Source: an uncultured Chromatiales bacterium (lineage in GTDB: Bacteria; Pseudomonadota; Gammaproteobacteria; Poriferisulfidales; Poriferisulfidaceae). From it: a stretch of 64,000 nucleotides of DNA. The notes beneath the pieces are model-generated. The model saw only the letters and a list, made by a program, of their open reading frames with translations. It had not been told where the DNA came from and searched no databases. The DNA lies in NCBI GenBank assembly GCA_964526195.1, contig CAZGIH010000003.1, positions 9,434 to 73,433 on the forward strand. Direction: 5' to 3'. The translations under genes were made by a program, and so were the position numbers. Shown here piece after piece: positions 10,320 to 38,140 of this stretch (positions are counted from its first letter, which is position 1; each line of letters begins with the position of its first letter).

Positions 10320-10403
10320 AGGGACTCGCTCTCACTGCAAATCACGCAAATAGCACAGAAACCCTTTCGATTCAAGTGTTGTCGCCGTGTAAATCCCCTC
10401 GCC

Positions 10404-13325
10404 TCAGGCGACTTGACGGCGAACTAGATCCCGGAAAACTCCTCCAACCTCCATCAATGTCTCGAAGGTCCCCACTTCGGCCACTTTCCCGGCCTGCATG
10501 ACATAAATGCGATCCGCCTGGCGCAACGTTGAAAGGCGGTGAGCAATGACAATCCGAGTTGAACGTAGACTCGCGAGATTATCCATCACCCTGGCTTGGT
10601 TCTCGTTGTCGAGCCAATTCGTCGCCTCGTCAAGCAACATAACTCGGGGAGTCTCAATCAGCGCATGAGCAATCACGATACGCTGACTTTCTCCTCCTGA
10701 CGTAAGGCCACCACCACCCACGCACGTCAGCATCCCCATCGGCATCCGCATGATGTCGCGGTCGACAGATGCGGCCTTGGCGGCTGTCCATGCGACATCA
10801 CTAGTCACGCCTTCCCGGTCTCCAACGATGTTGTCCCATACGTCCTCCGGATGCAATTGCAGGTCCTGAGGAACTGCGCCAATCTTCCGGCGCACTTGCT
10901 TGAGGTTGAGATGCCTCAGGTCGCGCCCGTCGTAATACACTGCCCCGGAAGACGGATGGTCCAAGCCAAGCGCAATTCGGAAAATCGTACTCTTGCCCGC
11001 CCCCGACTCGCCGGCAATAGCGACAAACTCGCCGGGGTTGGCGCGAATTGTGACATCGTCGAGAATCAGGGGGCCCTCAGGATCATACCGAAAAGTGATG
11101 TGGTCGAACACGACCTCGCCTCCCAAACTCTCGACAAGTTCTCCCTCAGAACTTGTCTCCGGAGTCTCGGATAGAAATGGGCGGATTTGATCGAATGCTG
11201 GCATGATGGCAACGACCGCACTGAACGATGCGCCCAGCCGGGCCACCGCTGCCTGAAACACTATAAACACGAGGTAAATGACAAGAAAGTCTCCGATCTC
11301 GATCCCTTCCCGGCCCGGCGTCATCATCATCAGAAACAGCGTTGCACCGGCAAGCAGTGGCAATGCGGCCCCAAATGCCTGTAAATGATCTTCCAAGGTG
11401 CCTAGTTTGGATTCCGCGCGTTTTTGCTCGCGGTAGCCACGCGCCAGAACCGCGAAAGCGGTCCCTTCCGCATCATCGATCCGTAGTTTAGAAATGCCGT
11501 TGATGAACTGAAACAGTTGACCCGCCATGTGGTGAACGGTTCGCATCACTTGGCCATAAGGCGAGATTTGCTGCAGGCCCAATACTACGGTTACAACCAA
11601 GGACAAAAAACCAAAAGCAGCCGTAACAGTTCCCAGCACCTCATCGTAGTAGGAAATCAGGAGAAACGCGGGTAACAGGAAAACGATTGACAGCACTGCG
11701 TTTGCGATCACGGCCCGCACGGCGTCGCGAAGAGCCTGAAACGTCATACCTCGCATGGCCAGGTTGCCCGCCGGGTAACGACGCAAGAAACTCAAAGGCA
11801 GCCGGAGCAGGCGATCCCAGAATGCAGCCTCAAGCCGAGACGCGCCACGCCCTTCGAGGCGCATGAGCGCCATGCCCTGAAGGATATGCAGTAATGCCCC
11901 AACCAAAGCGAATGCCGCCAGTGTTGCCGTCGCCAGATACAGCAGACTTATTTCACCAGTTGGAATGACTTCATCCACGACGAAACCGACCACTACGGCA
12001 GGCACCAGTATGACCAAGCCACCAAGCAGCCCGGCTGTCGCAAAGCGTAAAAAATCAGCAACTAGACCTTTCCGAACAAGGCGGTACAGGTCTCGCAATC
12101 CGACCTTGCCCGACGTCAGCGGCTGGTAGAAAACCCAAGCGTCAGGATCGAGCGCCTTCGCACGTTCGGGAGTCACTCGAGTGCCGCGTCGTCCGACCAT
12201 CTCCATTTCCCGGTAATGCCCGAGCATACCCGGCAGCAATGCCACAGGCTGCCCATCGGCTTCCCGAAACGCCAACATCGCACCGCTGTCTCCAATCCAC
12301 CACCGTTCTTCCCAAGTCAGCCGCACCTGCCGACCGCGCACTCCAGATGCATCCAAGACGTCGCCGAGGGTAGGAACCGAATCAACAACGCCCGATTTTT
12401 CGGGCCATTTGAAATCAATGCCTTCATGTTCCCCTATAACTTTCAACACCTCAAGCAATGCCGTACCGTCCACATCGGCCCTTTCTTCATCCGGAAGATC
12501 GTAGAGATTGAACAGGCGGTGTCGGGCATGCTCTTCGTCGCTGCGGCGACTAGTCACACGATCCCGTTCCAAATTCGCCTGATCAGCAACCGCCAGATTG
12601 CGGTTGAGCCGCTCATGAGAAAACGCTGTCACGTGGAAATCCGCTAAGGCAGACAGAAGAAGCCCCTCTTTGGCAAAATTTTCCGAGGACCGAATGGAAA
12701 CCTTCGCCTTTTCCATCAAACTTAGCCAAGTCGCAGGCGTAAGCGGTACGGTGCCCTTGGCAGGCTCACCATGCAAATCACCCTCGACCGGATCAATTAG
12801 CCCCAAAAACAATCCCGCTCCTGAAGACAGTTGCGATACCCACACCACGCCCTGCCGGGACGATAGTGTGCCTCCCACTTCTGGAAAAATCTTGTCAGGC
12901 TCGACAGGCGTGTCCGGCCGCGGCCGCGGCCCAGCATCCCGGGACAATTCAGTAGAAATATCCGTGATCCATGCATCGACATGCTCTGCCAATTCCGCAT
13001 TCGGAACCACACCCAAGTCTGCAATCGAAAGACGCCACAAAACCGTGTCCGGCAATCCTTTTGCAACCAAGCCGAAAGTCGTGTCCCCTTCCTGCGGAAC
13101 CACACCCGGCAGAAGACGCCCGGAATGGGCACGAAACAGGTGTTGCGGGGATGCCTGGTCCACTCCGTCCTGACGCTCGACTAGAAACAGGTCAACCGAA
13201 CCTTTCTCGATGAACCAGATGCATTGCGGGTCGTCCATGTCGATCGGCAGGTTTCCGGCGCAGGGCACCAAAGATCCTGATTGAGCCGCCAAACTGGCAA
13301 GAGAGTGGAATTCCGGAGACGCCAT
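10404..13325 (-). CDS. NHLP bacteriocin system ABC transporter, permease/ATP-binding protein with N-terminal cNMP-binding-like domain
   Basis: GGMLAF...PVALLP linker, ABC TM region, Walker A GESGAGKST, SGGESQR, LLDEAT; adjacent to the peptidase ABC gene and an NHLP precursor. Confidence 0.88.
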   Translation of the reverse strand: MASPEFHSLASLAAQSGSLVPCAGNLPIDMDDPQCIWFIEKGSVDLFLVERQDGVDQASPQHLFRAHSGRLLPGVVPQEGDTTFGLVAKGLPDTVLWRLSIADLGVVPNAELAEHVDAWITDISTELSRDAGPRPRPDTPVEPDKIFPEVGGTLSSRQGVVWVSQLSSGAGLFLGLIDPVEGDLHGEPAKGTVPLTPATWLSLMEKAKVSIRSSENFAKEGLLLSALADFHVTAFSHERLNRNLAVADQANLERDRVTSRRSDEEHARHRLFNLYDLPDEERADVDGTALLEVLKVIGEHEGIDFKWPEKSGVVDSVPTLGDVLDASGVRGRQVRLTWEERWWIGDSGAMLAFREADGQPVALLPGMLGHYREMEMVGRRGTRVTPERAKALDPDAWVFYQPLTSGKVGLRDLYRLVRKGLVADFLRFATAGLLGGLVILVPAVVVGFVVDEVIPTGEISLLYLATATLAAFALVGALLHILQGMALMRLEGRGASRLEAAFWDRLLRLPLSFLRRYPAGNLAMRGMTFQALRDAVRAVIANAVLSIVFLLPAFLLISYYDEVLGTVTAAFGFLSLVVTVVLGLQQISPYGQVMRTVHHMAGQLFQFINGISKLRIDDAEGTAFAVLARGYREQKRAESKLGTLEDHLQAFGAALPLLAGATLFLMMMTPGREGIEIGDFLVIYLVFIVFQAAVARLGASFSAVVAIMPAFDQIRPFLSETPETSSEGELVESLGGEVVFDHITFRYDPEGPLILDDVTIRANPGEFVAIAGESGAGKSTIFRIALGLDHPSSGAVYYDGRDLRHLNLKQVRRKIGAVPQDLQLHPEDVWDNIVGDREGVTSDVAWTAAKAASVDRDIMRMPMGMLTCVGGGGLTSGGESQRIVIAHALIETPRVMLLDEATNWLDNENQARVMDNLASLRSTRIVIAHRLSTLRQADRIYVMQAGKVAEVGTFETLMEVGGVFRDLVRRQVA

Positions 13326-13329
13326 GAGA

Positions 13330-15552
13330 CTAACCAGCCTGGACAAGCCGGTAGTAGGCCCCGTCCTTGTCCGTTATCAACTCTGCATGCGTGCCACGCT
13401 GTACTACCTTCCCCTTTTCGAGCACAATAATCTGATCGCAATCCCGAACCGTACTCAGCCGGTGCGCCACGATTAGGCAACTAATTCCTCGGCGGCGTAG
13501 TGCATCGTCGACCAAATCCTCGGTGGCCGCGTCAAGCGCGCTGGTTGCTTCATCAAGAATCAATATTGTCGGATTGCCGACCAATGCACGCGCGATTTCC
13601 AATCGCTGTCGCTGACCGCCGCTGAAATTGTTTCCGTCTTCCTCGACCTGCGTCGCGTAGCCATGCGGCCGGCTAAGAATCTCATCGTGAATGCAGGCAT
13701 CGCGGGCTGCCGTAACCAGAATATCGTCTGGAATGGCAGGATTCCATAAGGTGATGTTGTCACGTACTGTCGCAGAAAAAAGAATGATATTCTGATCCAC
13801 CATAGATAAAGACCGGGACAGAACTTCGTCAGGAACTTCATGCCTGAGATAGCCGTCGAACAGAATTTCACCGGACCATGGCTGGTAGAGGCCGGAAATC
13901 AAGCGAGCCAGTGTCGATTTCCCCGACCCGCTCGCCCCAACCACTGCGACTCTCTGCCCTGGTTTTATTGTCAAGTCAAAATTCTCGATTATGGGACGGC
14001 GGCCCTGGTTGTAGCCAAAGGTGATGTCGCGCAGCTCTACATGTCCAGCCAGCTGCAACCGCCCATTCAGGGTGGCAATGGAATCCGACGAATCACGCCT
14101 CTGAGCCAACCCAGGGTCCTTCGGGGCTTTCGTAATGTCTTCCAAACGTTGCATATCCGTCTCAAGTGCCTGAAGATCGTCTGAAAACGAAACGAAACGT
14201 CCGACGGGTTCCAAAAACATAGCCGCCACAACATAAAATCCCATCAACATGCCGAGTGTCATTTCACCAGCCATAACCTCTGTTGCGCCAACTGCCAATA
14301 CAGCCACACTCCCCAAGATCAAGAACAGGCCTGGCAAAGCCGAATTAACATGGCTCCACTCGGAAAAACACTGGAGCGCCTCTAGTTCTCGGGCTTGATG
14401 GCCGCTCCAGCGGGAAAAGAAACGATCATCCGCGGCAGTCATCCGTAATGTATCCGTGTGATGCAGCATCATCGTTCCGATGCCCAGTAACAGGCTTCGC
14501 TCTCTCTGCAGGGTATGGCTCGCATCGGCGCGAATGCGTGAGATCAGACGCATTAAAACGGCATTAAGCACGGCTAAGCCGAAAACGATTAGCGCTAACG
14601 TCGGCTCGTATGCCAGCATGGCGAGCAAAAATACTATGCTCATTCCGAGTTCGATCAATAGGCTGATGAAATGATTCGAAAGAGTCTTGGCAATCTTGTC
14701 GACAGACAGGACACGGGCTGTCAGTTCTCCCGCTAACCGATGATGGAAGAAGTCGATTGGCAACTGCAATAGCCGGGTTAGGCATTGATCCCAAGCAACT
14801 ATCGAGAGGCGGGCAGCCAAACGCCGCAGACACCTCTGCTTCAGCCAAGTCAATCCGTAGATAAGAACGGCCGCGCTTGCCATGGCGCCGGCCACAATCC
14901 CTCCCCAAGGCTCACTTTTCCCCAATACTTGATCCACGAATATGATCAGTAATGCAGGTGTGGCGAGGGCCAAGACGGCCAGCAATAGCCCGCATCCAAC
15001 TGCATAAGCCAATCCACCCCAAGTGCCTTGCAACCAGGACGGAAGACGTTCCAAGATGCTAGGACGAACGCCCCCGGGCTGGAATTCCGACCCAGGCTTG
15101 AACTGTAGAGCCACTCCTGTAAAGCCGCTTTCAAATTCCTTCCTTGAGAGCTTGCGGCGTCCGGTGGCTGGGTCGTTGAGGTAGAACCAATCGCGGTCAT
15201 AGCCTTCCAAGATCAGAAAGTGGTTGAATTCCCAGAATAAGATCATCGGGAGTGGCCTTTGCTTGATCTGGCCAATTTTTCCGAACCATCCGGAACATTC
15301 GAGACCATAGTGTTGGGCCGCACGCTTGATGCCAGCAGCTGTAGAACCATCCCGACTGATTTCACATCTATCACGTAATTCGGCCAGTGGCACCCAGCGC
15401 CCGAAATAGGCAAGTACGCTACCCAAACACGCGGCAGAGCATTCGGTCATATGCATCTGCAACAGAAGCGGAGTAGTCACACGCCGCTTTTCGCGTTCTT
15501 TTATTTGCAACTTACCGAGTTTAGTCGGTTCTTTCGGGTTGGAAGAAGGCAT
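13330..15552 (-). CDS. NHLP bacteriocin export ABC transporter with C39 peptidase domain
   Basis: C39 triad QMHMTECSAACL, FNHF, LNDPA; Walker A GASGSGKST; FSGGQRQR; ILDEAT. Confidence 0.93.
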   Translation of the reverse strand: MPSSNPKEPTKLGKLQIKEREKRRVTTPLLLQMHMTECSAACLGSVLAYFGRWVPLAELRDRCEISRDGSTAAGIKRAAQHYGLECSGWFGKIGQIKQRPLPMILFWEFNHFLILEGYDRDWFYLNDPATGRRKLSRKEFESGFTGVALQFKPGSEFQPGGVRPSILERLPSWLQGTWGGLAYAVGCGLLLAVLALATPALLIIFVDQVLGKSEPWGGIVAGAMASAAVLIYGLTWLKQRCLRRLAARLSIVAWDQCLTRLLQLPIDFFHHRLAGELTARVLSVDKIAKTLSNHFISLLIELGMSIVFLLAMLAYEPTLALIVFGLAVLNAVLMRLISRIRADASHTLQRERSLLLGIGTMMLHHTDTLRMTAADDRFFSRWSGHQARELEALQCFSEWSHVNSALPGLFLILGSVAVLAVGATEVMAGEMTLGMLMGFYVVAAMFLEPVGRFVSFSDDLQALETDMQRLEDITKAPKDPGLAQRRDSSDSIATLNGRLQLAGHVELRDITFGYNQGRRPIIENFDLTIKPGQRVAVVGASGSGKSTLARLISGLYQPWSGEILFDGYLRHEVPDEVLSRSLSMVDQNIILFSATVRDNITLWNPAIPDDILVTAARDACIHDEILSRPHGYATQVEEDGNNFSGGQRQRLEIARALVGNPTILILDEATSALDAATEDLVDDALRRRGISCLIVAHRLSTVRDCDQIIVLEKGKVVQRGTHAELITDKDGAYYRLVQAG

Positions 15553-15564
15553 TCAGGATAGTCA

Positions 15565-16452
15565 TCAAATTTGCTCTAGGCTAAGCAGCGCGATAGGCGA
15601 ATGCCGACCAAGCATGATGCGTACGTGGCATGGCGTGCCGTCCGGCACAGTGAGTTTCGATTCGGAGTCAAGGGCAATGTCGACGCGATAGGCGTAATCC
15701 ACGCTCTCCGACTGAAATGCCGCAAGCCAACTCGGAAACGGTCCAGAGGTTACAGCGACAATTTCTCCATCCACTTCACGCACTGCCCTGTCCGGCATTA
15801 CAACCTCGACCGATGCCTGCATGCCAGCACGGAGACGTTTTGCCATACGCGGAGCGACTAGTAGCACCGCTTGGAGTGGCTTGTCTTCCGGATCGCGAAG
15901 CTGGGCAACAACTGATCCAGCAGGCAAGTAGTCTCCCGGGGCAGCATCCAAAACCATGATTTCGCCACTCATATGGCTGGCGATAACTTCTTTCGCAGTA
16001 CGCCGGGCCTCCATTTGCAGCAATGCTTCTTGGGCCGAGGCTAGAAACGAGTTCGTGCCGTCACCACCAACCTGCCGCACCCCCGCCTCCAGAATCCCAA
16101 TCTGGTCACGTAAAGCGGTAATCTCACGCTCCAATTCCGGTACGGTCTGACGGGCAATCGGGGCTCCCTTTTCGATCTGGTCTCCAAGGGTCACCAAAAA
16201 TTTCACCAAATGGCCCGGCTCGGCCGAGACAACCTCATGGCGAATTCCTGGCTTCAGTAGGACTCCGTCGACCGTAACGCTGCGTACAACACTGCCGAAT
16301 AATATCCAAACGAGGAGCGCCAACAAAACCACACCGATGCCAGCCAGGATGACGCGCTCGTGAGGAGCCGCTACCCTTAGTAAATAGTCGAGTTGCTGGC
16401 GTTTGTTCCTGCTGGCCGCAGCATCATCAAGAAACAGACTATTGAACATCAA
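15565..16452 (-). CDS. NHLP bacteriocin system secretion protein (HlyD-like adaptor)
   Basis: N-terminal QLDYLLRV..P followed by a TM helix, barrel-sandwich hybrid and coiled coil; first gene of the exporter operon. Confidence 0.88.
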   Translation of the reverse strand: MMFNSLFLDDAAASRNKRQQLDYLLRVAAPHERVILAGIGVVLLALLVWILFGSVVRSVTVDGVLLKPGIRHEVVSAEPGHLVKFLVTLGDQIEKGAPIARQTVPELEREITALRDQIGILEAGVRQVGGDGTNSFLASAQEALLQMEARRTAKEVIASHMSGEIMVLDAAPGDYLPAGSVVAQLRDPEDKPLQAVLLVAPRMAKRLRAGMQASVEVVMPDRAVREVDGEIVAVTSGPFPSWLAAFQSESVDYAYRVDIALDSESKLTVPDGTPCHVRIMLGRHSPIALLSLEQI

Positions 16453-16696
16453 TTCTTGTCCATATAGGGCCGTTCATTATAGTCACAGCCGACACACCGC
16501 CATCAAAAGCCATCGCCTGTCTGCTAGGAAAGAAAGGCATCTCAGAACACTTTATTGAGTGAAAAATCCTCGAAAGTCCATTGGAAATCAGTTCGCAGAA
16601 TGAAGCCCTGGAGGCCTGCACATGTGCATTGACAAGCCTGTAGGGATAAGATACACTCCATACACTCAAGTTAAACCCACCTAGCGAGGAGGAATC

Positions 16697-16969
16697 ATGG
16701 GAGCATTTATGGAATCGGCCATGCAGCGTGCGGAAGAAATGCGCACTCACTTGACCGAGAAAGCATGTGAAGATAGTGAATTCCGCAAGCGTCTTGTGGA
16801 AGACCCTCGGGGTGCTGTTGCCGATGAGTTCGGCATTGAAATCCCCGAAGCTTTTGATGTCCAGGTGCATGAAAGCGATCTGACTACTCTTCACCTTGCA
16901 TTGCCGCCTGGTCCAGATTTGGATGAAGAGCAGCTTGAGGCAGTTGCTGCTGGTCTTTGCTGCTGCTGA
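16697..16969 (+). CDS. NHLP-leader (proteusin-type) RiPP precursor, core LCCC
   Basis: RBS GAGGAGG; nitrile-hydratase-like leader KACEDSEFRKRLVEDPR...VHES...LHLALP...LDEEQLEAVAAG; then CTT TGC TGC TGC TGA. Confidence 0.93.
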   Translation: MGAFMESAMQRAEEMRTHLTEKACEDSEFRKRLVEDPRGAVADEFGIEIPEAFDVQVHESDLTTLHLALPPGPDLDEEQLEAVAAGLCCC

Positions 16970-17139
16970 AAACGATATTACATCTTTTGACGCAGACAGG
17001 TTGACCTAGAGCAATTTCTGTCAATCAAATTGGCTCCTGGCGTTGAGTGTATCGACACTTTTTCGTCAGGAGTCAGTTGGTTAAGGCCACCCGTCAAGGC
17101 GGGAATCAAGTAAATATCTTGTGGTAGAGTTTGCCAAGC

Positions 17140-19503
17140 ATGGCAAGCGAACCTAACAACACCTCTCAAGGTTTTGAAGTACGATTCGGAAAGTGGGTCA
17201 TCGCGGCTCGTTGGCCAATCACCATAATCTCTCTAATCCTGACTGCGCTGGCTGTCAGTGGCAACGTATTTCTCGAAACCGCCACAAGCTATCGTGCATT
17301 CTTCGAGAAAGACAATCCTCAATTTCAAGCGCTCGAATCTCTGGAAAACATCTACGGGAGAAACGACAGTGTCGTCTTCCTTGTGGTCCCAGAAGATCGT
17401 GACTTTGCATCGGAGCAATCTCTCGCGGCTGTAGTCTGGCTAACCGATCGCGCATGGCAAACACCATATTCAACGCGGGTCGATTCAATTGCAAACTTCC
17501 AGCACACTACTGCAAAAGGCGACGATTTGTTCGTGCGCAACCTTGTAGACCCGCAAAAACTAAACAGCGCGCAAGAACGATCTCGAATTCGTGAAACGGC
17601 CCTAGCCGAACCGCGACTCGCCGGCAATCTCGTGGCCCGGGATGGTACCGTAAGCGCGGTCGGCGTCACTGTTCAATTGTCCGAGGAAAACTCATTATTC
17701 GAGGGTTCCGAAGTCGCTAAATTCGCATACAGCCTTGCCGCCGAAGCGGAAGAAAAATTTCCTGGCATCGACCTCCGCTTGGTCGGCTCGATAATAATCA
17801 ACGACACACTTTCAAATGCGACCATAGATAGCCAAATAACCTTCCTGTCCGTGAGCCTGCCCATCATGGCATTGACTCTCGGCATCCTGATTCGGGGGGT
17901 TGTGGGAGTCATGACGACAGGACTTGTCATCATTTTCTCTGTTCTCGCGGCGATAGGGATAGGTGGATGGGCGGGCCTGCCATTCACGCCATCCACAGCT
18001 CCCGCGACAACCATAGTGCTGATGATTTCCATTGCCGGCTGCGTACACCTGCTGGTCACTTTAATGCAGCGTCTACAGGCTGGAGACTCGAAAAATACCG
18101 CGATTGTCGAATCTCTCAGGATCAATCTTTATCCGATGTTCCTTGCGAGCTTGACTACGGCTCTCGGATTCCTGAGCATGAATTTTTCTGAGGTCCCACC
18201 CTATCGCCACCTCGGGATGTTTGTCACATTTGGCGTCGGCGTCTCATTCTTGCTCACGGTAACCTTCCTGCCTGCTCTTCTTTCACTGCTTCCAATGCGC
18301 ACGCCAGCAGCCCGGCAGGAGAAGCATGTAGTAATGGCAGCTATTGCGGAATTCGTGATCCGTCATCGAACACATGTGCTATGGAGTTCGACGGCAGTCG
18401 TCCTAGTGTTGTTGGCTGCAATTCCGCGTAACGAATTAAACGATGTCCTAGTGTATTTCTTCGACGAGAGCATCGAGTTGCGTCAGGATGTCGACTTCAT
18501 GGACGAACACTTGAGCGGAAACACCGTGCTTGAGTACTCGATTGTTTCGTCTGGACCGGAAGGGATCGTCGATCCTGCTTTTCTCGCAGATCTTTCAGCC
18601 TTTGCCGACTGGTACCGGGCTCAACCGGAAACACGGCATGTCATGGTTATTAGCGATACTTTCCGGCAACTTAACAAGAGCATGCACGGCGACGACCCCG
18701 CCGCCTACCACCTGCCCGCCCGTCGTGATCTCGCCGCACAGTACCTGCTGCTTTATGAACTTTCGCTTCCTCTAGGCCTCGACCTGAATAACCAGATTAA
18801 TGTTTCCAAGTCGGCCACCCGCATGACTGTGACAGCGAAAACACTTTCCTCAAACGAAATAGTGGAATTGAACGAGCGTGCGACGGCATGGCTGAACAAC
18901 AATGCGCCCCACTTCACTCGGGCAGAAAGTGCGGGAGTTGCATTAATGTTCGCGCATATTGGGTTACGTAACATCAAGGCCATGCTGCTCGGCATAACAC
19001 TCGCACTTATCGGCATTTCTATCCTTCTCATTATCGCCCTCCGCTCAACCCGTCTTGGCCTTGTGAGCTTAGTGCCAAATCTCGTTCCTAGTGCAATGGG
19101 ATTCGGTGTTTGGGCACTGACCGTAGGAGAAGTTGGACTCATATTGTCAGTTGTCATGGCCATGACCATCGGTATTGTGGTGGATGACACGGTGTACTTC
19201 CTCAGTAAATATCTCAAAGCGCGCCGCAAATACAACTCCACGACTGAAGACGCGGTACGCTACACTTTTCGGAGAGTCGGGCGGGCGTTGGTCACGACCT
19301 CGGCTGTATTGGTGGCTGGTTTCCTGACTTTGGTTCTGTCCCCATTCGTCCCGAACGTGCAGGTCGGGCTACTCATCGCAATGATCATTACATTTGCCTT
19401 GATTGCGGACTTTTTGCTCCTTCCTACCCTGCTAATGGCTTTGGACCGGCGTCCCCGCTCTACTGAACCGACCCCAACAACGCTCGGTCACTCCTCCGCA
19501 TAG
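17140..19503 (+). CDS. MMPL/RND family transporter
   Basis: Two repeats of periplasmic loop plus TM bundle; ASLTTALGFLS, GIVVDDTVYFL, RRVGRALVTTS motifs. Confidence 0.9.
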   Translation: MASEPNNTSQGFEVRFGKWVIAARWPITIISLILTALAVSGNVFLETATSYRAFFEKDNPQFQALESLENIYGRNDSVVFLVVPEDRDFASEQSLAAVVWLTDRAWQTPYSTRVDSIANFQHTTAKGDDLFVRNLVDPQKLNSAQERSRIRETALAEPRLAGNLVARDGTVSAVGVTVQLSEENSLFEGSEVAKFAYSLAAEAEEKFPGIDLRLVGSIIINDTLSNATIDSQITFLSVSLPIMALTLGILIRGVVGVMTTGLVIIFSVLAAIGIGGWAGLPFTPSTAPATTIVLMISIAGCVHLLVTLMQRLQAGDSKNTAIVESLRINLYPMFLASLTTALGFLSMNFSEVPPYRHLGMFVTFGVGVSFLLTVTFLPALLSLLPMRTPAARQEKHVVMAAIAEFVIRHRTHVLWSSTAVVLVLLAAIPRNELNDVLVYFFDESIELRQDVDFMDEHLSGNTVLEYSIVSSGPEGIVDPAFLADLSAFADWYRAQPETRHVMVISDTFRQLNKSMHGDDPAAYHLPARRDLAAQYLLLYELSLPLGLDLNNQINVSKSATRMTVTAKTLSSNEIVELNERATAWLNNNAPHFTRAESAGVALMFAHIGLRNIKAMLLGITLALIGISILLIIALRSTRLGLVSLVPNLVPSAMGFGVWALTVGEVGLILSVVMAMTIGIVVDDTVYFLSKYLKARRKYNSTTEDAVRYTFRRVGRALVTTSAVLVAGFLTLVLSPFVPNVQVGLLIAMIITFALIADFLLLPTLLMALDRRPRSTEPTPTTLGHSSA

Positions 19504-19609
19504 GGATGACCATCCTCAAAGGTTACTCATCACTGGCGCGGATGGGGTCCCTGCGAACATGCAAATAAAGAAACGGAGAACTCGCTCATCACGAAAAGAC
19601 CCATCTGAA

Positions 19610-20761
19610 TTACTTGGAGAGATTTGTGGTCAGCGGCCAAGCAAACACAAGTAGAAAAATGTAGCCTTTGGCTTTCTCGACCTTGTCATGAATTAGTGTG
19701 AGCTTGATGTGGTGTATGCCCCGCATCAGCACAAATTGACCTGACTTGCCAGAAAAAGGCTCCGACCCCGATGCCCATTTCACCAGTTCCTCCAACTTCT
19801 CCGGAACAGCGACGCCTGTCTCACGTATACCGTCAATGAGGGGAGTCCAATGCTGGATATCTTTCAGCCATTCTCCCTCACGTGCGTAGAAATTCAGTCC
19901 AAGAGTCTCCCCCACGCCGTCCACGCCCATGTCAAGATGGACTCCCATGTAGGTGAAAGCATCACGTTCTTCAAGGGGCGAAGCGCTTGCGGCGACCGCC
20001 GAGCATTGCCCCGGCCATCCAACACGCTCCAAAAAAGAAACGACTTCGTTCACTTTTTTAAATCCCATCACCGATAGCCTAATCCCCCCTTTTCTTTCCG
20101 GGAAGCCCCCAACGGCCTGAATCCATGTGTCTGGCTTCGCGGCTAGATACACGCTCTCGATCTGTCGACGTTCTTCAGCGCTCAGGTCCAAGTGAGCCGA
20201 ATGAGCCACCGCATCAACCACGGTAAAGAGATCCCGAAGTTGTTGATCACCGCCCCCACCAGCCAGCGCGTCTTTGTCAGGGTATAAGAAAATTCCAGGG
20301 GCCGGGAGTGGAGCATCCGACTCTGTGTCGATATCGTATTCGAGCATCAACTTCCGACCAACTATACGGCGAAGAATGGCTTCTTCCGATTCCGTCTCGC
20401 CGAGCAGCCAAGCAACACTCGCCGAAGACGCGTCTGCACCTTCTGCTTTCCCCTTTTCCTCAAGAAATGTTGCAGATTGACCTCCGCCAATAACCGAAAC
20501 ACCAAAATCCGCTATTGCCCGGGGATCATGCAGAGGCAATTCAAACCCGAAAGGCAAGGCCGCTACGGTTACAGGCAGATCTCGAGCATGTTCAAGGGTA
20601 ATTTCCCATGCTCGCTCTCCAATTAGTTGAGGAGAAATGCGGCTTCTGAGTTGCTGCAGAAATTCCGCCATGGAATCCGCCTCGTGAAGGAGGCGTTTCT
20701 CTGTCGCGATCCATTGATCTTCAAGGCTCATGGCTGGCGGTTCCTCGTGGTGATGATTCAA
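19610..20761 (-). CDS. Uncharacterised RiPP-cluster enzyme, 383 aa; possibly aromatic prenyltransferase (PT-barrel) fold
   Basis: Overlaps the YcaO stop codon by 4 nt. Pattern FGFELPL/ADF/LEYD/GWPG/HLD/HHIKL/KGY resembles, from memory, a family found beside cyanobacterial RiPP genes; the fold is inferred only. Confidence 0.5.
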   Translation of the reverse strand: MNHHHEEPPAMSLEDQWIATEKRLLHEADSMAEFLQQLRSRISPQLIGERAWEITLEHARDLPVTVAALPFGFELPLHDPRAIADFGVSVIGGGQSATFLEEKGKAEGADASSASVAWLLGETESEEAILRRIVGRKLMLEYDIDTESDAPLPAPGIFLYPDKDALAGGGGDQQLRDLFTVVDAVAHSAHLDLSAEERRQIESVYLAAKPDTWIQAVGGFPERKGGIRLSVMGFKKVNEVVSFLERVGWPGQCSAVAASASPLEERDAFTYMGVHLDMGVDGVGETLGLNFYAREGEWLKDIQHWTPLIDGIRETGVAVPEKLEELVKWASGSEPFSGKSGQFVLMRGIHHIKLTLIHDKVEKAKGYIFLLVFAWPLTTNLSK

Positions 20762-23097
20762 GCAATAACGGGGACGGGGTTCAGGTCAGTCTCTGAAATC
20801 GGGTCGTCGCGCCACCCCATTTCGACCGGTACATCGAATAGACGCCCAGGCGCGAAGCGCTCCCAGAAGTGGCGCAGACCCGGCACAATGACTCGTGCCA
20901 CGGGCATGCCGATATCGGGTCGGGTCAGGTCCAGCACTAACAATTCCATGCCTTTAGATTCGATCAAGGTGCGGCATCGTTCCACGTCCTCTCTCATGTC
21001 TGTTGTGTCGGGAACAGGGTAATCCGACTTGGCGCGCAGTGTGGCATCAGGATCCGGCGCCAGATACGGGAGATCTGACAGTTTGCCATTCTTCCACCAC
21101 CACAGGCACAGTGGCTCGTCGACATCGTGGCCGCAACCGCCCCTCTTCGACCCCTGAACCCAGTTCAGAAATTGGTTCAGCTCGCACACTGCACGCAAGG
21201 CCGCAATGTGTGGATCCACATGTGCCCCAGCCCCGTAAATAATGTCTTCCTCTTCCTTGTCAGTCCGGCGCGAGACGGCAACAAAGGCGGGAATACCAAG
21301 ATCATTGGTTACGTCCAGCAGCCACATTTCGCGGTTGAAGCTGCGGTAGAAGTCGGGCGCGGCTGCAAGATAGTCATCCTTGAAGCTTGCCAAATCCACT
21401 CCAGGCAAGCGCAGTCGGTTGTACCACCAAATTGAGAAAGCATCACGTTCAACCAGCTCAAAAAATCCTTGCAGAACTGCCTCTTCGAGCGTGTTTCCGG
21501 CAGCACAACCATTGGAATCCGCCTTCAGAATTGGTGTTCCGTTCTGATCAGCCCACACGCTATAAAGCATTGGTGTCGGCAGGTATCGGTGCCGGTCTCG
21601 TGTTAATGACCACACGGGAGACCACTCTATCTCTGCACACGAGTCGAAACGGGGCGGCACAAAATTATAGGGATGACCATGGCCATTGATTTGATCTGCG
21701 TGATCCAATTGCCAATCACTGAACAACTGTATGTTATTCGGGTGGATCACTTCGGCCTCGCTAAAATCCTCAAGCCGCTTCCTGCAGCGGATCTCATCGC
21801 CATGAAATGCGCAGGAATAACGCTCAATTGCCTCACAGAGCGCACTCGCCTCGGATTGCTGTGGGGTGCTTCCCTTGCCTGCACTTTTGCTCCTCAAACT
21901 GCGACGCAACGAACTCAATTTGCTATTTCTTAACGCGAAATTACTTCCAGCCCAGTAGACGTGCAACCAGGAATCGGATTTTTCCGTGGTACGTGAAAGC
22001 CACGACACGACACCGCTGACAGAACTAATCAGATGCCGGTACTTAGCAAGAGTCTCCTCTGGAGATACCGAATGCACACCGCCACTGTTCCGAATGCTTT
22101 TCGGGCTCGGCTTCAGTTGTATCGGGATTGGCGGCCGGTCGGCACGATACAACGTCTCGTCACCGCATGCGAAACACTGCGGACGGCGCATAACCTGGTG
22201 ATATTCGCCCTTCAAACGGACAGTGTCCATCGAAATAGCCTGTTCGTGGAGTGGCGCCAGTTCCCCGAAAACCAGCCATTTGGCAATCTCGACCGCGACG
22301 AGACGATATACCGCATCCAAAATGGCAGGCTGGGCGACATTCGGCAGGAACGCAGCATCCTCACCGCCGAAGTTGCGCAAAAAATTGTGAACCTCCTCGT
22401 GGCCCCGAAGACGATATGCGAGACAATCCCAACAGGGGCCCTGTTCCGCTGGCCGAAAAATCGGTCCGAACAGAGGATAGATGCCTTTCGGCCTAACCAA
22501 CATCCACGGCATGCCGGACTTGACATGACGTTGATTCATGTCCGCGTGCCGCTTATCAAGATAGTCGCTGCAAACGGTGACAGAAAGGCTTGGTCGGTCC
22601 GTGCCCACGGCCACATCCATGGCTTCAAGCTGTCGGACGATATGGCCATCATCGCCGGCAACCGAAACCCTAGACTCCGCAAGGCGTTCCTCGGCCCACC
22701 GAGGAGAAGCGCCCAATGAAGACCAAAATGCTGCCTCTTCCCGTTCCATAGCGTAATCGCCTGAGGCGATATAGCCCCTAGAAGCCAAGGCCATCAGTGC
22801 CATCTGGACGTCAGATTCCGAATACGTGCCGGAGAGCTCGGACGTAATGTCGTGATGTGAGCGAGAACCGTCGAGAAGCGGTAGTAGGTCAGAATAAATC
22901 GGTTCGCGAAGCAAAGTACTGAACAACTCGGAAACCAGCAGCACCTGCCCGTCGTCGATCTTGCGAAATTCTATATGCGGCGTAAGGATGGGCGATTCGA
23001 CAACGCCAAGGTCGGGTGCCGTAACTCTCTTTAAAATTCCATGACTCGATTTCTTGTTCGATCCCATCTTCTCGCTTGCACTCTCATTCATGTTCAT
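20758..23097 (-). CDS. Fused TOMM cyclodehydratase (leader-binding/E1-like plus YcaO domain)
   Basis: GPCWDCL...RRPQCFAC, SAGKGST, ALCEAIERY, SNGCAAGNTLEEAVLQGFFELVERDA, Pro-rich C-terminus NPVPVIA. Confidence 0.95.
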   Translation of the reverse strand: MNMNESASEKMGSNKKSSHGILKRVTAPDLGVVESPILTPHIEFRKIDDGQVLLVSELFSTLLREPIYSDLLPLLDGSRSHHDITSELSGTYSESDVQMALMALASRGYIASGDYAMEREEAAFWSSLGASPRWAEERLAESRVSVAGDDGHIVRQLEAMDVAVGTDRPSLSVTVCSDYLDKRHADMNQRHVKSGMPWMLVRPKGIYPLFGPIFRPAEQGPCWDCLAYRLRGHEEVHNFLRNFGGEDAAFLPNVAQPAILDAVYRLVAVEIAKWLVFGELAPLHEQAISMDTVRLKGEYHQVMRRPQCFACGDETLYRADRPPIPIQLKPSPKSIRNSGGVHSVSPEETLAKYRHLISSVSGVVSWLSRTTEKSDSWLHVYWAGSNFALRNSKLSSLRRSLRSKSAGKGSTPQQSEASALCEAIERYSCAFHGDEIRCRKRLEDFSEAEVIHPNNIQLFSDWQLDHADQINGHGHPYNFVPPRFDSCAEIEWSPVWSLTRDRHRYLPTPMLYSVWADQNGTPILKADSNGCAAGNTLEEAVLQGFFELVERDAFSIWWYNRLRLPGVDLASFKDDYLAAAPDFYRSFNREMWLLDVTNDLGIPAFVAVSRRTDKEEEDIIYGAGAHVDPHIAALRAVCELNQFLNWVQGSKRGGCGHDVDEPLCLWWWKNGKLSDLPYLAPDPDATLRAKSDYPVPDTTDMREDVERCRTLIESKGMELLVLDLTRPDIGMPVARVIVPGLRHFWERFAPGRLFDVPVEMGWRDDPISETDLNPVPVIA

Positions 23098-23298
23098 TGC
23101 CCAGCATCATGTTCGCGCAGATAGGTTGCGGTGCTTATTCGACTCTGCACTGGCTACCTAAGCAACTTTGCAGCAAGGTTTCATTTGGATTAGATTTCAT
23201 GTCAAAAGGTTTGCGAGATTCACGGATGGGATGTCCGCCAATCGCCCCCAGTGCCTACCTATCAGTGGGGTGCCGGAACCCGGGCATATAAATTCAGA

Positions 23299-25722
23299 TT
23301 ACGTAGCCAATTCGGCAATATCGGCAGCAGCGCGAGATGCTGTTTCGTGAATTGTCTCGGTCAACTCACTATAGTCGTCCATCCCGCAGGATCGAGCGAT
23401 CATCTCTTCGACACTCGGATTTGCTGTTCCATTCAAGGGTCCGTCTTGCATGGCCAACCGCGAGATCCCCCGCAGGTTCTGCCACATTTTTGCAGTCTCC
23501 GCCAACCGCATTGCAGCTTCAGAAGAGATTAACCCATTTGCGCCCGCTGTTTGGAAAACTGAAATCGCATCGGGGGCCAAGATGTCCGGAGTCTCGCTCG
23601 CGTGGGTCAATTGCAGGAACCGGGCAGCACGCTCGACATCCTGGCGTCCGCCTCGCATATTCTCGATCGACTGCAGGTCGGATCCAGTTGTGTCTGCGGT
23701 GATTCCGTGCAATTCAGAAATCAAGGCGTCACGCGCAGCTCCCTGAGCTAGGATTTCATGTCTCGCTTCATCGAATCGCTCCCCGATCTCGGGGTTGCCA
23801 GACACAAAGATGCACCGCGCCCGGGTCAGGTTCAGCATGTCCTCAGCCGAGTCGGTAGCCTGATGGTGTTCCATAAAATCGGCAAAAGAATAAATGGCCT
23901 TCCTTTCCCCGAGATTCGAGGCTGGTGCAAACAAGAGGCTTCCGTGTGACAAAGAGCGCAACGCCTCGAGAAAGCGGGAGCATATCACTTCGTTATGCAT
24001 CTCGGAAGAACCGCTGTTTTCGTAAACGATTACCGTGCGAAGCTCAGTGCCGAACACCGCTTCCTTGCTAGCCAAATCTCCCAAAACTGCCACGGCTACA
24101 CCGTCTCCGGCCTGGCGGATGTGCCGACTGGCAAACACCTTGTCAACCGCTGACAGCAGGGACGCAATCGAAGCTTCAGCGACATTGGACAGCGCTATAC
24201 CCGCCTCAGCTGGCGACAAGCTACCCCGCATCGTGTGCACCCCGATCTGGAAAGCCTTGTCATTTGACCAGTGCCGTGCGGCTTCCACTGCTTCTCGGAT
24301 TCCTTGAATCGGGATCTCCGCAATCCTTTCCCGCATTTCGGAGACATTGAATTCGCGTGTCCAGTACAAACGCGCAAGGCCACTGCGAGCAACCCTCTCG
24401 TAGTCCGAATCGGGCCCAAAACCCTCAGGGAGATCAAGGTCGGTGAATTCCCTGTCCTGAAGGTTTTCGAGCAATTCCGGTGAGTGGTTGATCCACTCGG
24501 CTAGAAGAGGCGCGGTATCAAGAATCTTGCCAATCTCCTCAAATGCATCTGGATATCCAGCGTACGCCCGACTGTCATAAACGTGCCAGTCCTTAACTTC
24601 CGGATAGAATTTCGCGCGCCATTCATCGACCAGCGGATCCATCGTCTTGAACCAATGTCGGGCGGAAAGGGCTAGGCCAGCCATTTTCAGATAGTTGCCC
24701 GGGAGTTTAGGTGATTCGTCCTTGCCATAGTGTTGCAGCACCGGATAATGCCGGTTTGCCTCCATGTGATGATCAGCATGGCGTTGCATGTTGTAAAAAA
24801 TCCAATTCGTGAATCTGCTGGAAGCAGTCCAAGAATGCCGTGGCAGCACTTTCTCATACCGACCATTAAGTAGACGGATGCGCTGCAATCCGTAGTGCTG
24901 GACATAATTGATGACCTTCATCGAAAGGATCATACTGAGGCAAACCACGGCGAAAACCAGCACTGCCCATGGGCCGCCCATCCAATAGATCAATCCATAC
25001 CACGCCGCGGTCTCAAAAGCATACCGCCAAAACGGGTTTGTGTAATGCCACACCGGCAGACGTCGGCGCGCCAGCCGCTGACGTGCGAATCGCCAAGCCT
25101 CAGTGAGGCTACACTTCAAATCTCTCGGGATATGTTGCCAGAAACTTACACCCTTTGGAGCGGACCCAGGGTCTCCAGGAGTGCTAACGAGAGCGTGATG
25201 AACATAGATGTGTTCCGTCGCGTAATGTGGATAGGAAGCGGAGGCCAGCAAGAACTCACCAAGCCAACGCTGCCACGCGATACGTCGGTGGACCAATTCA
25301 TGACCGACAATGAAGACCACCTGGCCGATATTTGCCATCCCCATCACCAGTATCACAATTTCCCAAACGGCCAGATGGCCAACAACAAGAATCTGCCAGA
25401 GTGAAAACACCAGCGTCACCGGCCAGAATATCGCCCATAGCAAGACGGTCAACTCGTACCAGAACAATTGCCTTTCGGACGTCTGGGCTGGGTCCATGTT
25501 CCGCTCTTCCTGCCCGAATGCGCCATCGAGGCTTTCCACAATGATCAGGTAAGCAATCGGACCCACGAGCCACCAGCCACCGTACATCGCGGCGCAAGCG
25601 GTAAGTGGAAAAGCCGCAAGGGACAGGAAGTACAGCAGGGCGTTCCGAATTGATGGTTCAATTCTCCCTACTTCAACCGTTCCGGTGCCTAGAGCGCTTG
25701 TGTCCACCCCACCTCCATTCAT
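23299..25722 (-). CDS. AlkB/fatty-acid-desaturase-type membrane diiron enzyme fused to a degenerate GlnE adenylyltransferase-like domain, 807 aa
   Basis: RBS GAGGAGG before ATG at 25722; His boxes HELVH, EHIYVHH, NYVQHYGL, QRHADHH; C-terminal half follows GlnE motifs (FQIG, AVLGDL, RARCIFVSG, RGGRQDVE...LQL). Confidence 0.85.
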   Translation of the reverse strand: MNGGGVDTSALGTGTVEVGRIEPSIRNALLYFLSLAAFPLTACAAMYGGWWLVGPIAYLIIVESLDGAFGQEERNMDPAQTSERQLFWYELTVLLWAIFWPVTLVFSLWQILVVGHLAVWEIVILVMGMANIGQVVFIVGHELVHRRIAWQRWLGEFLLASASYPHYATEHIYVHHALVSTPGDPGSAPKGVSFWQHIPRDLKCSLTEAWRFARQRLARRRLPVWHYTNPFWRYAFETAAWYGLIYWMGGPWAVLVFAVVCLSMILSMKVINYVQHYGLQRIRLLNGRYEKVLPRHSWTASSRFTNWIFYNMQRHADHHMEANRHYPVLQHYGKDESPKLPGNYLKMAGLALSARHWFKTMDPLVDEWRAKFYPEVKDWHVYDSRAYAGYPDAFEEIGKILDTAPLLAEWINHSPELLENLQDREFTDLDLPEGFGPDSDYERVARSGLARLYWTREFNVSEMRERIAEIPIQGIREAVEAARHWSNDKAFQIGVHTMRGSLSPAEAGIALSNVAEASIASLLSAVDKVFASRHIRQAGDGVAVAVLGDLASKEAVFGTELRTVIVYENSGSSEMHNEVICSRFLEALRSLSHGSLLFAPASNLGERKAIYSFADFMEHHQATDSAEDMLNLTRARCIFVSGNPEIGERFDEARHEILAQGAARDALISELHGITADTTGSDLQSIENMRGGRQDVERAARFLQLTHASETPDILAPDAISVFQTAGANGLISSEAAMRLAETAKMWQNLRGISRLAMQDGPLNGTANPSVEEMIARSCGMDDYSELTETIHETASRAAADIAELAT

Positions 25723-26002
25723 AGCAACCTCCTCGCTCAGGTTATTGCAATGATATATCGACAATTGTCTACGACGAAGTAGCCGTGTCAAGCACAAACA
25801 CTTCTCATTCTATGTTCACGCCTTGGTTTAAATTTGTAACTGAGCCTGTTCACTTGATCGACAATGCAGACCTTCATTTGCCAAGGTAAAGTCGAACTGC
25901 ACCCAAAGAATAAAGCCTTTCGTCAGTGATATACTCATTTTTTACACAAAACCACATCCATTCTGCACGGCTCCAGCTTCAGCAATCGGTCAAATTGTCA
26001 CC

Positions 26003-26869
26003 ATGAGTAAAACCCAGCCCGCCCAAGGCACGAATCAGGAAAAAGAATCTTCGGTCCCTGCTTATTACGCCGAGCATACCGATTTCATGGTCAAGCGCGC
26101 CGGAGATCTGTTGGCCTACCACTATGGCCTTTGGGGACCGGACACGGCAACTGACAAGGAGGCTCTGTTACGCGCCGAACTCACCTTGGTTCAGGGGTGC
26201 GACCTCTGCCCGGGGCGGCACGTGCTGGACGCGGGCTGCGGCGTGGGAGGCACGGCGATCATGCTGGCTGAAACATATGGCGTCCAGGTTACCGGGCTGA
26301 CTAATTGCGAGCCCCATATCGAGGTCGCAGAAGAACATGCAAGACGGCGCGGGGTCGATCACCTGACCGAGTTCCAGTACGGGGATTTTATGGATTTCCC
26401 ATTCCCCGATGCGAGTTTCGACTCAGTCCTGAATCACAACTCTTTCTGCTACGCTCCAGATAAGCTGGCCTACTTGCAAGGCGTGCACCGCGTACTCAAG
26501 CCTAGAGGACGGTGGCAGGCTGTGGATATCCTGACGCAAGACGCGCCAATGTCAGAAACGCAAGAAGCGTATCGAACCAATGTGGAGCAGGGCTGGCTTA
26601 TACCACCTGTGGCTTCATGGCCCGACGTGGCTACGGCTCTTGAGGGGGCGGGTTTCGATCAAATGGAATGTCAGGACCTCTCCGCCGAAGTGCTGCGTTC
26701 CACGGAAAAAATCCGGAAACAATGGCAACTGTACACATTTCTGATTCCCCCGTCAGGTTGGCCAAGCGGGGCAATTCTGGAGTCTGCGGAAGCTGCCGTG
26801 AATTACAGCCTAGGACTAAAAGAAAACGTGTTCACCTACAATTTTCTTTCTGCCAGAAGGCCAGATTAA
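26003..26869 (+). CDS. Class I SAM-dependent methyltransferase (sterol/tocopherol C-methyltransferase-like)
   Basis: YHYGLWG, VLDAGCGVGG, FPFPDASFD, LKPRGR. Confidence 0.92.
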   Translation: MSKTQPAQGTNQEKESSVPAYYAEHTDFMVKRAGDLLAYHYGLWGPDTATDKEALLRAELTLVQGCDLCPGRHVLDAGCGVGGTAIMLAETYGVQVTGLTNCEPHIEVAEEHARRRGVDHLTEFQYGDFMDFPFPDASFDSVLNHNSFCYAPDKLAYLQGVHRVLKPRGRWQAVDILTQDAPMSETQEAYRTNVEQGWLIPPVASWPDVATALEGAGFDQMECQDLSAEVLRSTEKIRKQWQLYTFLIPPSGWPSGAILESAEAAVNYSLGLKENVFTYNFLSARRPD

Positions 26870-26975
26870 AGAACTGTGCCGCAATAATTTGCTGCGAAAT
26901 TCGCGTTTCACACCAGCCGTTCTGGAAAAGTAAAGGAACGTCGCCCATTACAGTAACTGAGAAGAAGCTCGCCTT

Positions 26976-28067: not shown

Positions 28068-28086
28068 GACCCTGTACCGGTTGGAA

Positions 28087-38104: not shown

Positions 38105-38140
38105 CGCTACCAACCTTCTTTTGGTCTTTCCGACAGCACC

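Follow-up and report, generated by a model that had tools for sequence, protein, structure and literature searches.

Does a peptide-modifying gene cluster that lacks two features by which its published relatives are defined belong with them, or does it form a system of its own? The question is raised by a 64,000-nucleotide stretch of DNA from an uncultured Chromatiales bacterium (assembly GCA_964526195.1, contig CAZGIH010000003.1), called the window below. Its positions 10404-26869 hold a cluster for a peptide made on the ribosome and modified after translation (a RiPP), with a precursor of the proteusin type. The srp clusters known from sponge microbiomes encode a proteusin, SrpE, with the core LCCCW, in which the YcaO enzyme SrpC forms three thiazolines and SrpI brominates the terminal Trp (PMC10286304, PMC10858898). 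SrpI is a Trp-6-brominase (PMC10286304, PMC10858898, bioRxiv 10.1101/2023.06.09.544420), and the LCCCW core is freed from a chimeric precursor by LahT150 (PMC10286304, PMC10858898). An original prediction, made from the letters of the window, saw in these genes a sister system of srp with different enzymes. The cluster is instead a halogenase-free, Trp-free variant of the published srp family, not a separate new system. The fuller reading, to which we assign a probability of about 0.7, is that of an intact, expressed srp-family biosynthetic gene cluster in a Candidatus Porisulfidus-like gammaproteobacterial sponge symbiont, without Trp and SrpI, and with the pathway and cassette behavior proposed below.

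The precursor and its relatives

The precursor gene (16697-16969) encodes an 86-amino-acid (aa) leader ending in LDEEQLEAVAAG and a four-residue core, LCCC. The C-terminal stretch reads ...HLALPPGPDLDEEQLEAVAAG followed by LCCC and the stop codon, with the cleavage mark after AVAAG. The hallmark of proteusins, a nitrile-hydratase-like leader, is present: the protein matches TIGR03793 with 69.9 bits (cutoff 50.9; E 1.2e-19) and NHase_alpha with E 5e-8, and the end of the leader is of the double-glycine type (L-12, L-7, V-4, A-2, G-1). It is 54% identical to SrpE (sequence from the supplementary information of PMC10286304) over 82 residues, without a gap and through the junction AG/LCCC, which identifies it as an SrpE orthologue that stops one codon sooner. 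The claim of a complete proteusin cluster related to srp was sound. The absence of Trp and of a halogenase was also borne out: the stop codon directly follows the third Cys of the core, leaving no C-terminal Trp, and Pfam and NCBIfam scans found no halogenase domain in the cluster's open reading frames (ORFs) of at least 140 aa; the tblastn search with SrpI covered the related loci, not the window.

All genes that had been listed for 10404-26869 are present as nine intact ORFs, at the coordinates given for them, in ORF calls and Pfam/NCBIfam scans. With two regulatory candidates, the features are:

10404..13346, minus strand: NHLP-type export protein ABC2, a permease/ATPase without a peptidase domain and with an N-terminal extension of ~290 aa (TIGR03797, ABC_tran, ABC_membrane)
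13330..15552, minus strand: peptidase-containing ABC transporter (PCAT, or ABC1), a C39 peptidase joined to an ABC exporter (TIGR03796, Peptidase_C39)
15565..16452, minus strand: short HlyD-type membrane-fusion adaptor, 295 aa (HlyD_3, TIGR03794 partial)
16629..16657, plus strand: promoter-like site TTGACA-17-TACACT, 5' of the precursor gene, by consensus match alone
16697..16969, plus strand: SrpE-like NHLP precursor, 90 aa (TIGR03793, NHase_alpha)
17028..17078, plus strand: strong hairpin between the precursor and MMPL genes, from RNA folding
17131..19503, plus strand: MMPL transporter of the HAE3-type RND class (MMPL, sterol-sensing domain, TIGR00921, HpnN-like)
19610..20722 (longest ORF to 20761), minus strand: 370-aa protein with a predicted PT-barrel (ABBA prenyltransferase) fold, from AlphaFold2 (AF2) and Foldseek
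20758..23097, minus strand: fused heterocyclase with winged helix/RiPP recognition element, E1-like and YcaO parts, the SrpC counterpart (YcaO, TIGR03604, TIGR03882)
23299..25722 (longest ORF to 25797), minus strand: AlkB-type membrane di-iron oxygenase with a GlnE-type nucleotidyltransferase domain (FA_desaturase, GlnE)
26003..26869, plus strand: class I methyltransferase dependent on S-adenosylmethionine, divergently transcribed (Methyltransf_25/11/31, CMAS)

A further ORF of 151 aa (16439-16894, minus strand), antisense to the precursor gene and overlapping the start of the HlyD gene, is most likely spurious; it is without a functional counterpart, and in related loci it appears just as an overlapping ORF cluster.

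Several signals surround the precursor gene. The ribosome-binding site GAGGAGG lies immediately 5' of it, the promoter-like site at 16629-16657 has 10 of 12 consensus matches, and the fold of 16965-17090, which includes the hairpin at 17028-17078, has an energy of -43.6 kcal/mol (z -3.9). This hairpin is a possible attenuator or RNA stabilizer. In four RNA-type runs from sponges, of which three are labelled as metatranscriptomes and one has no library record, contigs cover the gene at 16677-16975, 16698-17040, 16716-17080 and 16680-16916; the fourth diverges from the window past 16916, the others ending at 16975, 17040 and 17080. They differ from the window at 4-9 positions and thus derive from a close relative. 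Their k-mer depth, a rough measure of transcript level, is 5-49, and the rest of the 19-kb stretch is empty but for a handful of contigs (depth 3-7) within the TraB-like gene and the gene for AlkB-GlnE. This focus on the precursor agrees with the published observation that srp precursor transcription is disproportionate and dominates that of the cluster (bioRxiv 10.1101/2023.06.09.544420).

Relatives were sought with the 370-aa protein in one genome per species. A relative was found in 454 genomes, and 84 related loci were compared by tblastn and clustering. Almost all of the best 80 genomes are metagenome-assembled genomes (MAGs) from sponge or other marine-invertebrate host metagenomes, judged by record titles and study labels, and they represent six or more phyla, with Candidatus Porisulfidus, Nitrospirales, Alphaproteobacteria, Acidobacteriota, Binatia, Gemmatimonadota and Thermodesulfobacteriota among the groups. 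The DNA of the window itself is present in runs labelled sponge metagenome. The 370-aa protein occurs in 80 of the 84 loci, a count fixed by the construction of the search, YcaO in 71, ABC exporters in 67, AlkB-GlnE in 64, MMPL in 56 and the methyltransferase in 50.

SrpI was found in just 4 of the 84 loci (L072, L074, L079 and L080), at 78-81% identity to the published protein, with a weak tblastn match in L041. In all four it adjoins the 370-aa protein, and AlkB-GlnE, MMPL and the methyltransferase are each present in some of them. LCCCW precursors were read in L072, L074 and L080; L079, where SrpI is 80% identical, has an NHLP precursor with an unreadable core. The enzymes that were thought to distinguish a sister system are thus found beside SrpI and LCCCW precursors. 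Nor is the tailoring set unusual, as it had been called, for the 370-aa protein, AlkB-GlnE, the LynD-like YcaO, MMPL and the methyltransferase form the conserved core of the srp family. Of the features by which the literature defines srp, those found here are an SrpE-like NHLP precursor, Leu followed by three contiguous Cys, a fused YcaO and occurrence in sponge microbiomes across phyla.

Cores were read from 63 precursors outside the window. RCCC is the commonest (17), followed by LCCCGI (9), LCCCL and LCCCW (5 each), LCCCT, LCCCG and RCCCCA (3 each) and several rarer ones; LCCC was read three times, the window counted in. The comparison shows that the Trp/brominase type is a minority side branch and that the constant machinery consists of YcaO, the PT-barrel protein and AlkB-GlnE. 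This fits the counts of a preprint in which 116 srp-like precursors adjoin YcaO genes and just 66 adjoin halogenases (bioRxiv 10.1101/2023.06.09.544420). The nearest relatives, L005 and L006 (Candidatus Porisulfidus sp. TsSOB), are other species-level genomes with 93-95% DNA identity to the window across the whole region, equal gene order and the LCCC core; their cluster proteins are 90-100% identical to those of the window.

Accessory genes vary with the core. Clusters of the RCCC type have two 370-aa paralogues (14/16), a flavin amine oxidase (10/16) and an MpaB/Lcp-type oxygenase (8/16), LCCCGI goes with an FAD_binding_4 oxidase (7/9), LCCCT with a geranylgeranyl-reductase-like flavoprotein (3/3), and RCCCC[AFI] with a ThcOx-type azoline oxidase (4/4). 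The window cluster has the minimal tailoring set alone. In the sampled loci the flavin amine oxidase occurs mainly with cores ending in CCC. Elsewhere in the window, at 36713-38113 (minus strand), a solitary flavin amine oxidase gene (Amino_oxidase E 9e-51) lies amid housekeeping genes (metA-like, YggT, proC). Its guanine-plus-cytosine (GC) content is 52.5% vs 60-61% in its neighbors, and its product is 41-51% identical to the amine oxidases encoded in srp clusters of the RCCC type from Nitrospirales and other phyla. The gene may be one of the accessory genes of the srp pathway that has become detached.

Tailoring, export and a proposed pathway

The original prediction listed an unknown protein of 383 aa. 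The ORF is there, but its likely start is ATG 20722, which gives 370 aa, as in its homologues. The protein has no match in Pfam or NCBIfam, and a profile search of its family against the PDB gave nothing meaningful (best E 0.69). An AF2 model from a 26-sequence alignment (pLDDT 91.2) predicts five alpha-alpha-beta-beta repeats, the order of elements that makes up the ten-stranded antiparallel barrel of ABBA prenyltransferases. When it was compared with the PDB by Foldseek, all 50 of the matches listed were ABBA prenyltransferases (prob 1.0, TM 0.35-0.59, identity 8-14%), including CymD, 5- and 6-DMATS, TleC, EpzP, NphB, PriB, FunA, AmbP3 and PagF, the last with E 3.6e-4. Invariant residues in the family are basic or aromatic (R223, R228, H350, K353, K365, Y367) and acidic (E74, E141, D143, D277). 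The predicted fold makes it probable that the 370-aa protein is a PT-barrel prenyltransferase adding an isoprenoid group. No literature tying proteusin or srp clusters to prenyltransferases was found; srp goes unmentioned in a review of sponge peptides (PMC12426817), and the cluster is not treated in papers that name Porisulfidus.

The family is large. Among 1.84 billion representatives, 1639 clusters at 50% identity match with E<=1e-3 and 182 with E<=1e-30, and a word-indexed search found at least 265 homologues of equal length. The few of these that are named come from MAGs of Gammaproteobacteria and Gemmatimonadota, with accession prefixes that we take to be those of sponge studies; two sit in clusters with an identical gene set.

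Paralogues of the PT-barrel protein occur within single genomes. One gammaproteobacterial MAG has three in tandem (L081, 7709-11137). The alphaproteobacterial MAGs L072 and L074 each have two precursors, LCCCW and WCCCGQ or WCCCGN, and two PT-barrel paralogues, adjoining SrpI. In the tree, each of these paralogues sits in the clade corresponding to one of the core types, which suggests one PT-barrel enzyme per precursor type.

Genes related to isoprenoids recur in sister clusters. The MpaB/Lcp-type oxygenase gene is present in L016, L061, L080 and ten other loci, recurring in RCCC-type clusters; to the MpaB/Lcp family belong rubber oxygenase and MpaB', which cleaves farnesyl chains. In further sister clusters, genes for polyprenyl synthase and for geranylgeranyl-reductase-like proteins recur. 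These genes are hints, as indirect pointers, of isoprenoid chemistry.

The fused heterocyclase is strongly matched by YcaO (E 1.3e-94), TIGR03604 (265 bits, cutoff 219) and TIGR03882 (123 bits). It aligns with LynD (4v1t) over its full length with E 5e-166, and also with TruD and MusD, it retains the family-wide C-terminal LNPxPVIA, and it is 60-76% identical to the YcaO proteins of srp-like loci. From these similarities we infer an azoline-forming heterocyclase of the SrpC type.

For the AlkB-GlnE protein, the invariant Met26 (nucleotide 25722) is the probable start. FA_desaturase matches it with E 1e-28 and GlnE with E 3.7e-7. Its AlkB part, within the N-terminal 400 residues, is 32% identical to PDB 8f6t (E 7e-54, residues 76-391), and its GlnE part matches 3k7d with E 3e-5. 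In the predicted AF2 structure (pLDDT 83), 8f6t is matched by Foldseek with TMt 0.74 and a root-mean-square deviation (rmsd) of 2.5 A. The eight-histidine di-iron motif set of the AlkB family is there, as the boxes GHELVHR, EHIYVHH, NYVQHYG and RHADHH, and none of these His residues varies among 35 homologues. The C-terminal half, which is poorly conserved, adopts a nucleotidyltransferase fold of the GlnE/DrrA kind (1v4a, 3k7d, 6yx5). The metal-binding motif of this domain is ELD, DLD or ALD in most members of the family and ELR (...GTELRT) in the Porisulfidus clade, which includes the window and has lost one Asp that binds metal. The GlnE-type motif G-[GS]...D-x-D is absent from the window protein, and in the family just G573 is conserved at >=90%. 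Given the ELR motif and the poor conservation, nucleotidyl transfer is regarded as unlikely in the window protein, and the GlnE-like domain is probably a docking or regulatory module, not a catalytic one.

A second, stand-alone AlkB-type gene lies 2 kb past the cluster (28866-30017, minus strand; FA_desaturase E 7e-29, 383 aa). Its product has 28% identity with the AlkB part of the fusion, and the gene is syntenic in L005, L006 and L012. The methyltransferase of the cluster matches Methyltransf_25/11/31 with E ~1e-19 and CMAS with E 2.6e-12; no NCBIfam equivalog is above its cutoff.

Among the export genes, PCAT matches TIGR03796 with 884 bits (cutoff 853) and Peptidase_C39 with E 4e-31. Its N-terminus has the motifs Q..TECSAACL, NHFLILEG and NDPATG, which we take, from what is known of C39 domains, to hold the catalytic Cys, His and Asp. 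It is predicted to cleave the leader after ...AVAAG and to export the core. ABC2 has 673 bits with TIGR03797 (E 4e-202), just below the cutoff of 709. The HlyD adaptor matches HlyD_3 with E 1.7e-7 and TIGR03794 in part (89.5 bits, below cutoff), and the MMPL transporter matches MMPL with E 7.5e-27 and TIGR00921 with E 1e-41.

A pathway can be proposed from these genes. The 90-aa SrpE-like precursor would be made in large excess from its own promoter. The LynD/SrpC-like YcaO would then convert the three Cys of LCCC to thiazolines, a reaction that the literature has established by experiment for SrpC and SrpE. The PT-barrel protein would add an isoprenoid, as its fold and the isoprenoid-related accessory genes of sister clusters suggest. 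The resulting lipophilic intermediate could be oxidized at the membrane by the AlkB-type di-iron domain, by hydroxylation or desaturation, and the methyltransferase would add a methyl group. Finally, the C39 domain would cut after AVAAG, export would proceed through ABC1, ABC2 and HlyD, and MMPL might move the lipophilic product across the envelope. Of these steps the thiazoline step alone has published support.

Cassette exchange and alternative readings

The cluster has a GC content of 53.9%, below the 61.0% of the remainder of the window, and the spot counts of the original prediction were reproduced (41.7% at 14641-14700, 63.3% at 40981-41040). As had been stated, there is no integrase; no tRNA was found either, and neither the cluster nor its swapped part is flanked by convincing repeats, direct or inverted. 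Horizontal acquisition, which had been suggested from the lower GC content, is supported in another form. When L008 is compared with the window, identity is 92-97% over 9597-16400 (the TraB-like gene and the exporter trio) and 92% over 26977-28613 (the DinB side), but just 63-80% over 16400-26970. The cassette in L008 has an LCCCT precursor, rearranged genes and an extra geranylgeranyl-reductase-like gene. In both L008 and L001 the identity breaks at ~16400, sharply, and at ~26970, and the exporter trio lies outside the swapped part; ABC2, with 95% aa identity in L001 and L008, belongs to the conserved part. In L005 the flanks have an identity similar to those of L008, yet the LCCC cassette is kept at 94-95%. 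The divergence of the one cassette and the conservation of the other indicate that the biosynthetic half (~16.4-27.0 kb) is a cassette that appears to be exchanged between near-identical genomes at a fixed chromosomal site, while the exporter half is retained.

Exchange over longer distances is indicated by the tree of the 370-aa protein, a quick maximum-likelihood tree with SH-aLRT support only. On this tree, core class changes 8 times, compared with a mean of 29.7 and a minimum of 25 in 200 shuffles. The figures for phylum are 15 changes against a shuffled mean of 20.9 and minimum of 17. The tree thus follows core type and not phylum, so that cluster types move between phyla. A cassette that is 63-80% identical between flanks that are ~95% identical, together with this tree, is the form in which the suggested acquisition is supported.

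Several points weigh against the reading of an expressed srp-family cluster with this pathway and this exchange. Both srp-defining features named at the outset, the C-terminal Trp and SrpI, are absent, and the type srp cluster of Smenospongia aurea was compared by description, with the sequences of SrpE and SrpI taken from the supplementary information of PMC10286304. No chemistry was observed here, and the natural srp product is not described in the literature searched; the product is, as predicted, undescribed. The case for prenyltransferase activity is built on a predicted fold whose TM scores are moderate (0.35-0.59) and whose identity is 8-14%, LCCC offers no aromatic prenyl acceptor, and its N-terminal amine stays blocked for as long as the leader is attached. 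That the tree agrees with core type is to be expected of any gene moving with the cluster and does not by itself prove an action of the PT-barrel protein on the core. The nucleotidyltransferase motif is eroded here to ELR, no rubredoxin or other electron donor for AlkB was seen among the cluster ORFs, and ABC2 and HlyD are under their NCBIfam cutoffs.

The missing acceptor also bears on the strongest alternative, which we consider unlikely though by no means negligible: that the product is an unlipidated tris-thiazoline carboxylate which chelates metal, like pyochelin or desferrithiocin, with MMPL as an exporter of the siderophore type and a PT-barrel protein that does not prenylate the peptide, serving for example as a scaffold or acting on a different substrate. 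By sequence and YcaO chemistry the C-terminal Cys, once cyclized, would become a thiazoline-4-carboxylate, and in mycobacteria MmpL4 and MmpL5 export siderophores. However, the PT-barrel fold is so far known from prenyltransferases only, to which every structural match listed belongs. No other protein accompanies the precursor and YcaO as constantly as the 370-aa protein (80 of 80 loci, a figure fixed by the way the search was built), and its paralogue number tracks core type. The recurrence of isoprenoid-processing genes in sister clusters also speaks against a chelator, and genes for uptake or for a TonB-dependent receptor are absent from the cluster.

The two other alternatives take the missing Trp and halogenase as their starting point. 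An independent sister system of srp, with different tailoring enzymes and an unrelated class of product, would account for these absences and for tailoring genes without an annotated RiPP function in Pfam or NCBIfam; it is very improbable, since the same enzymes flank SrpI in L072, L074, L079 and L080, all of which except L079 gave a readable LCCCW precursor, the leader is 54% identical to SrpE, and in the 370-aa protein tree the LCCCW type is nested within the same family. Least likely of all is a decaying srp cluster that has lost the Trp codon and the halogenase and no longer makes a product. The core is indeed one residue shorter than LCCCW, and the worn GlnE-like motif and the low scores of ABC2 and HlyD could be read as decay. 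Against this, all nine ORFs are intact, as are the AlkB His boxes and the C-terminal motif of YcaO, L005 and L006 keep the LCCC cluster at 90-100% protein identity, the commonest core type ends in CCC (RCCC, 17 reads), and four RNA-type runs from sponges show transcription of the precursor.

Implications and known systems

The expressed, Trp-free srp cluster thus remains the preferred reading. What is specific to the window is the minimal LCCC type, the precursor-focused transcription and the cassette exchange. Clusters of the srp type rank with the most widespread and the most strongly transcribed secondary-metabolite loci of marine sponge microbiomes, and the constancy of YcaO, the PT-barrel protein and AlkB-GlnE shifts attention to their probable lipidation chemistry. 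A broader proposal is tentative, and rather more may speak against it than for it: that srp-family products, including that of the LCCC type, are lipidated poly-thiazoline mini-peptides, prenylated, oxidized by AlkB and methylated, from which a PT-barrel prenyltransferase family, RiPP tailoring by AlkB-GlnE and cassette exchange would follow. If this were true, the 370-aa protein would found a large family, of ~1,600 clusters at 50% identity, in which leader-guided PT-barrel enzymes prenylate peptides and are able to act on cores without aromatic residues, and AlkB-GlnE would be the first membrane di-iron oxygenase recruited to RiPP tailoring. The exchange of cassettes with the exporter kept would then resemble variable bacteriocin loci and point to competition between symbionts; that genomes so nearly identical have swapped the cassette suggests that the product is under diversifying selection. 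With the shortest core, no halogenase and the conserved tailoring set alone, the window cluster offers the simplest template for reconstitution of the pathway.

The cyanobactins (LynD/TruD/PatD, with PT-barrel prenyltransferases of the PagF-type F family) resemble the window cluster in being small azoline peptides. The window heterocyclase matches LynD over its full length, and a PT-barrel-fold protein and a methyltransferase accompany it. Linear cyanobactins have a methyltransferase-prenyltransferase. The window leader, however, is an 86-aa NHLP domain and not a cyanobactin leader, and a scan of the cluster ORFs found no PatA/PatG-type subtilisin protease or cyanobactin precursor, the sole protease being the C39 domain. 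The PT-barrel protein is likened to the known families by fold only, with no detectable sequence similarity, and the window adds an AlkB-type oxygenase and an MMPL transporter.

The oxygenase itself is closest to AlkB-AlkG of Fontimonas thermophila (8f6t/8sbb; 32% identity, TMt 0.74-0.79, rmsd 2.5-2.9 A). All the boxes of the AlkB alkane 1-monooxygenase, HELxHR, EHxxxHH, NYxQHYG and RHADHH, are retained. In place of rubredoxin the window protein is fused to a GlnE-type nucleotidyltransferase domain, it is encoded inside a RiPP cluster, and it presumably acts on a group linked to a peptide, not on a free alkane.

With the NHLP/Nif11 export systems of the thiazole/oxazole-modified microcin type (TIGR03793/03794/03796/03797; Haft et al., 2010), the window has in common the arrangement of precursor, C39-ABC, second ABC and HlyD. 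It differs in a core of just four residues and in the scores of ABC2 and HlyD, which are below the equivalog cutoffs. The double-glycine-type end of its leader is of the kind that goes with LahT-type double-glycine peptidases.

The srp clusters remain the nearest system. The window has in common with them the leader, 54% identical to that of SrpE, the LxxxxL motif, the AG/L cleavage site, the L-C-C-C core and the LynD-like YcaO, as well as an origin in sponge symbionts and very high transcription of the precursor. It differs in being without the C-terminal Trp and SrpI, and hence without bromination; its core ends instead in Cys, which should give a terminal thiazoline-4-carboxylate.

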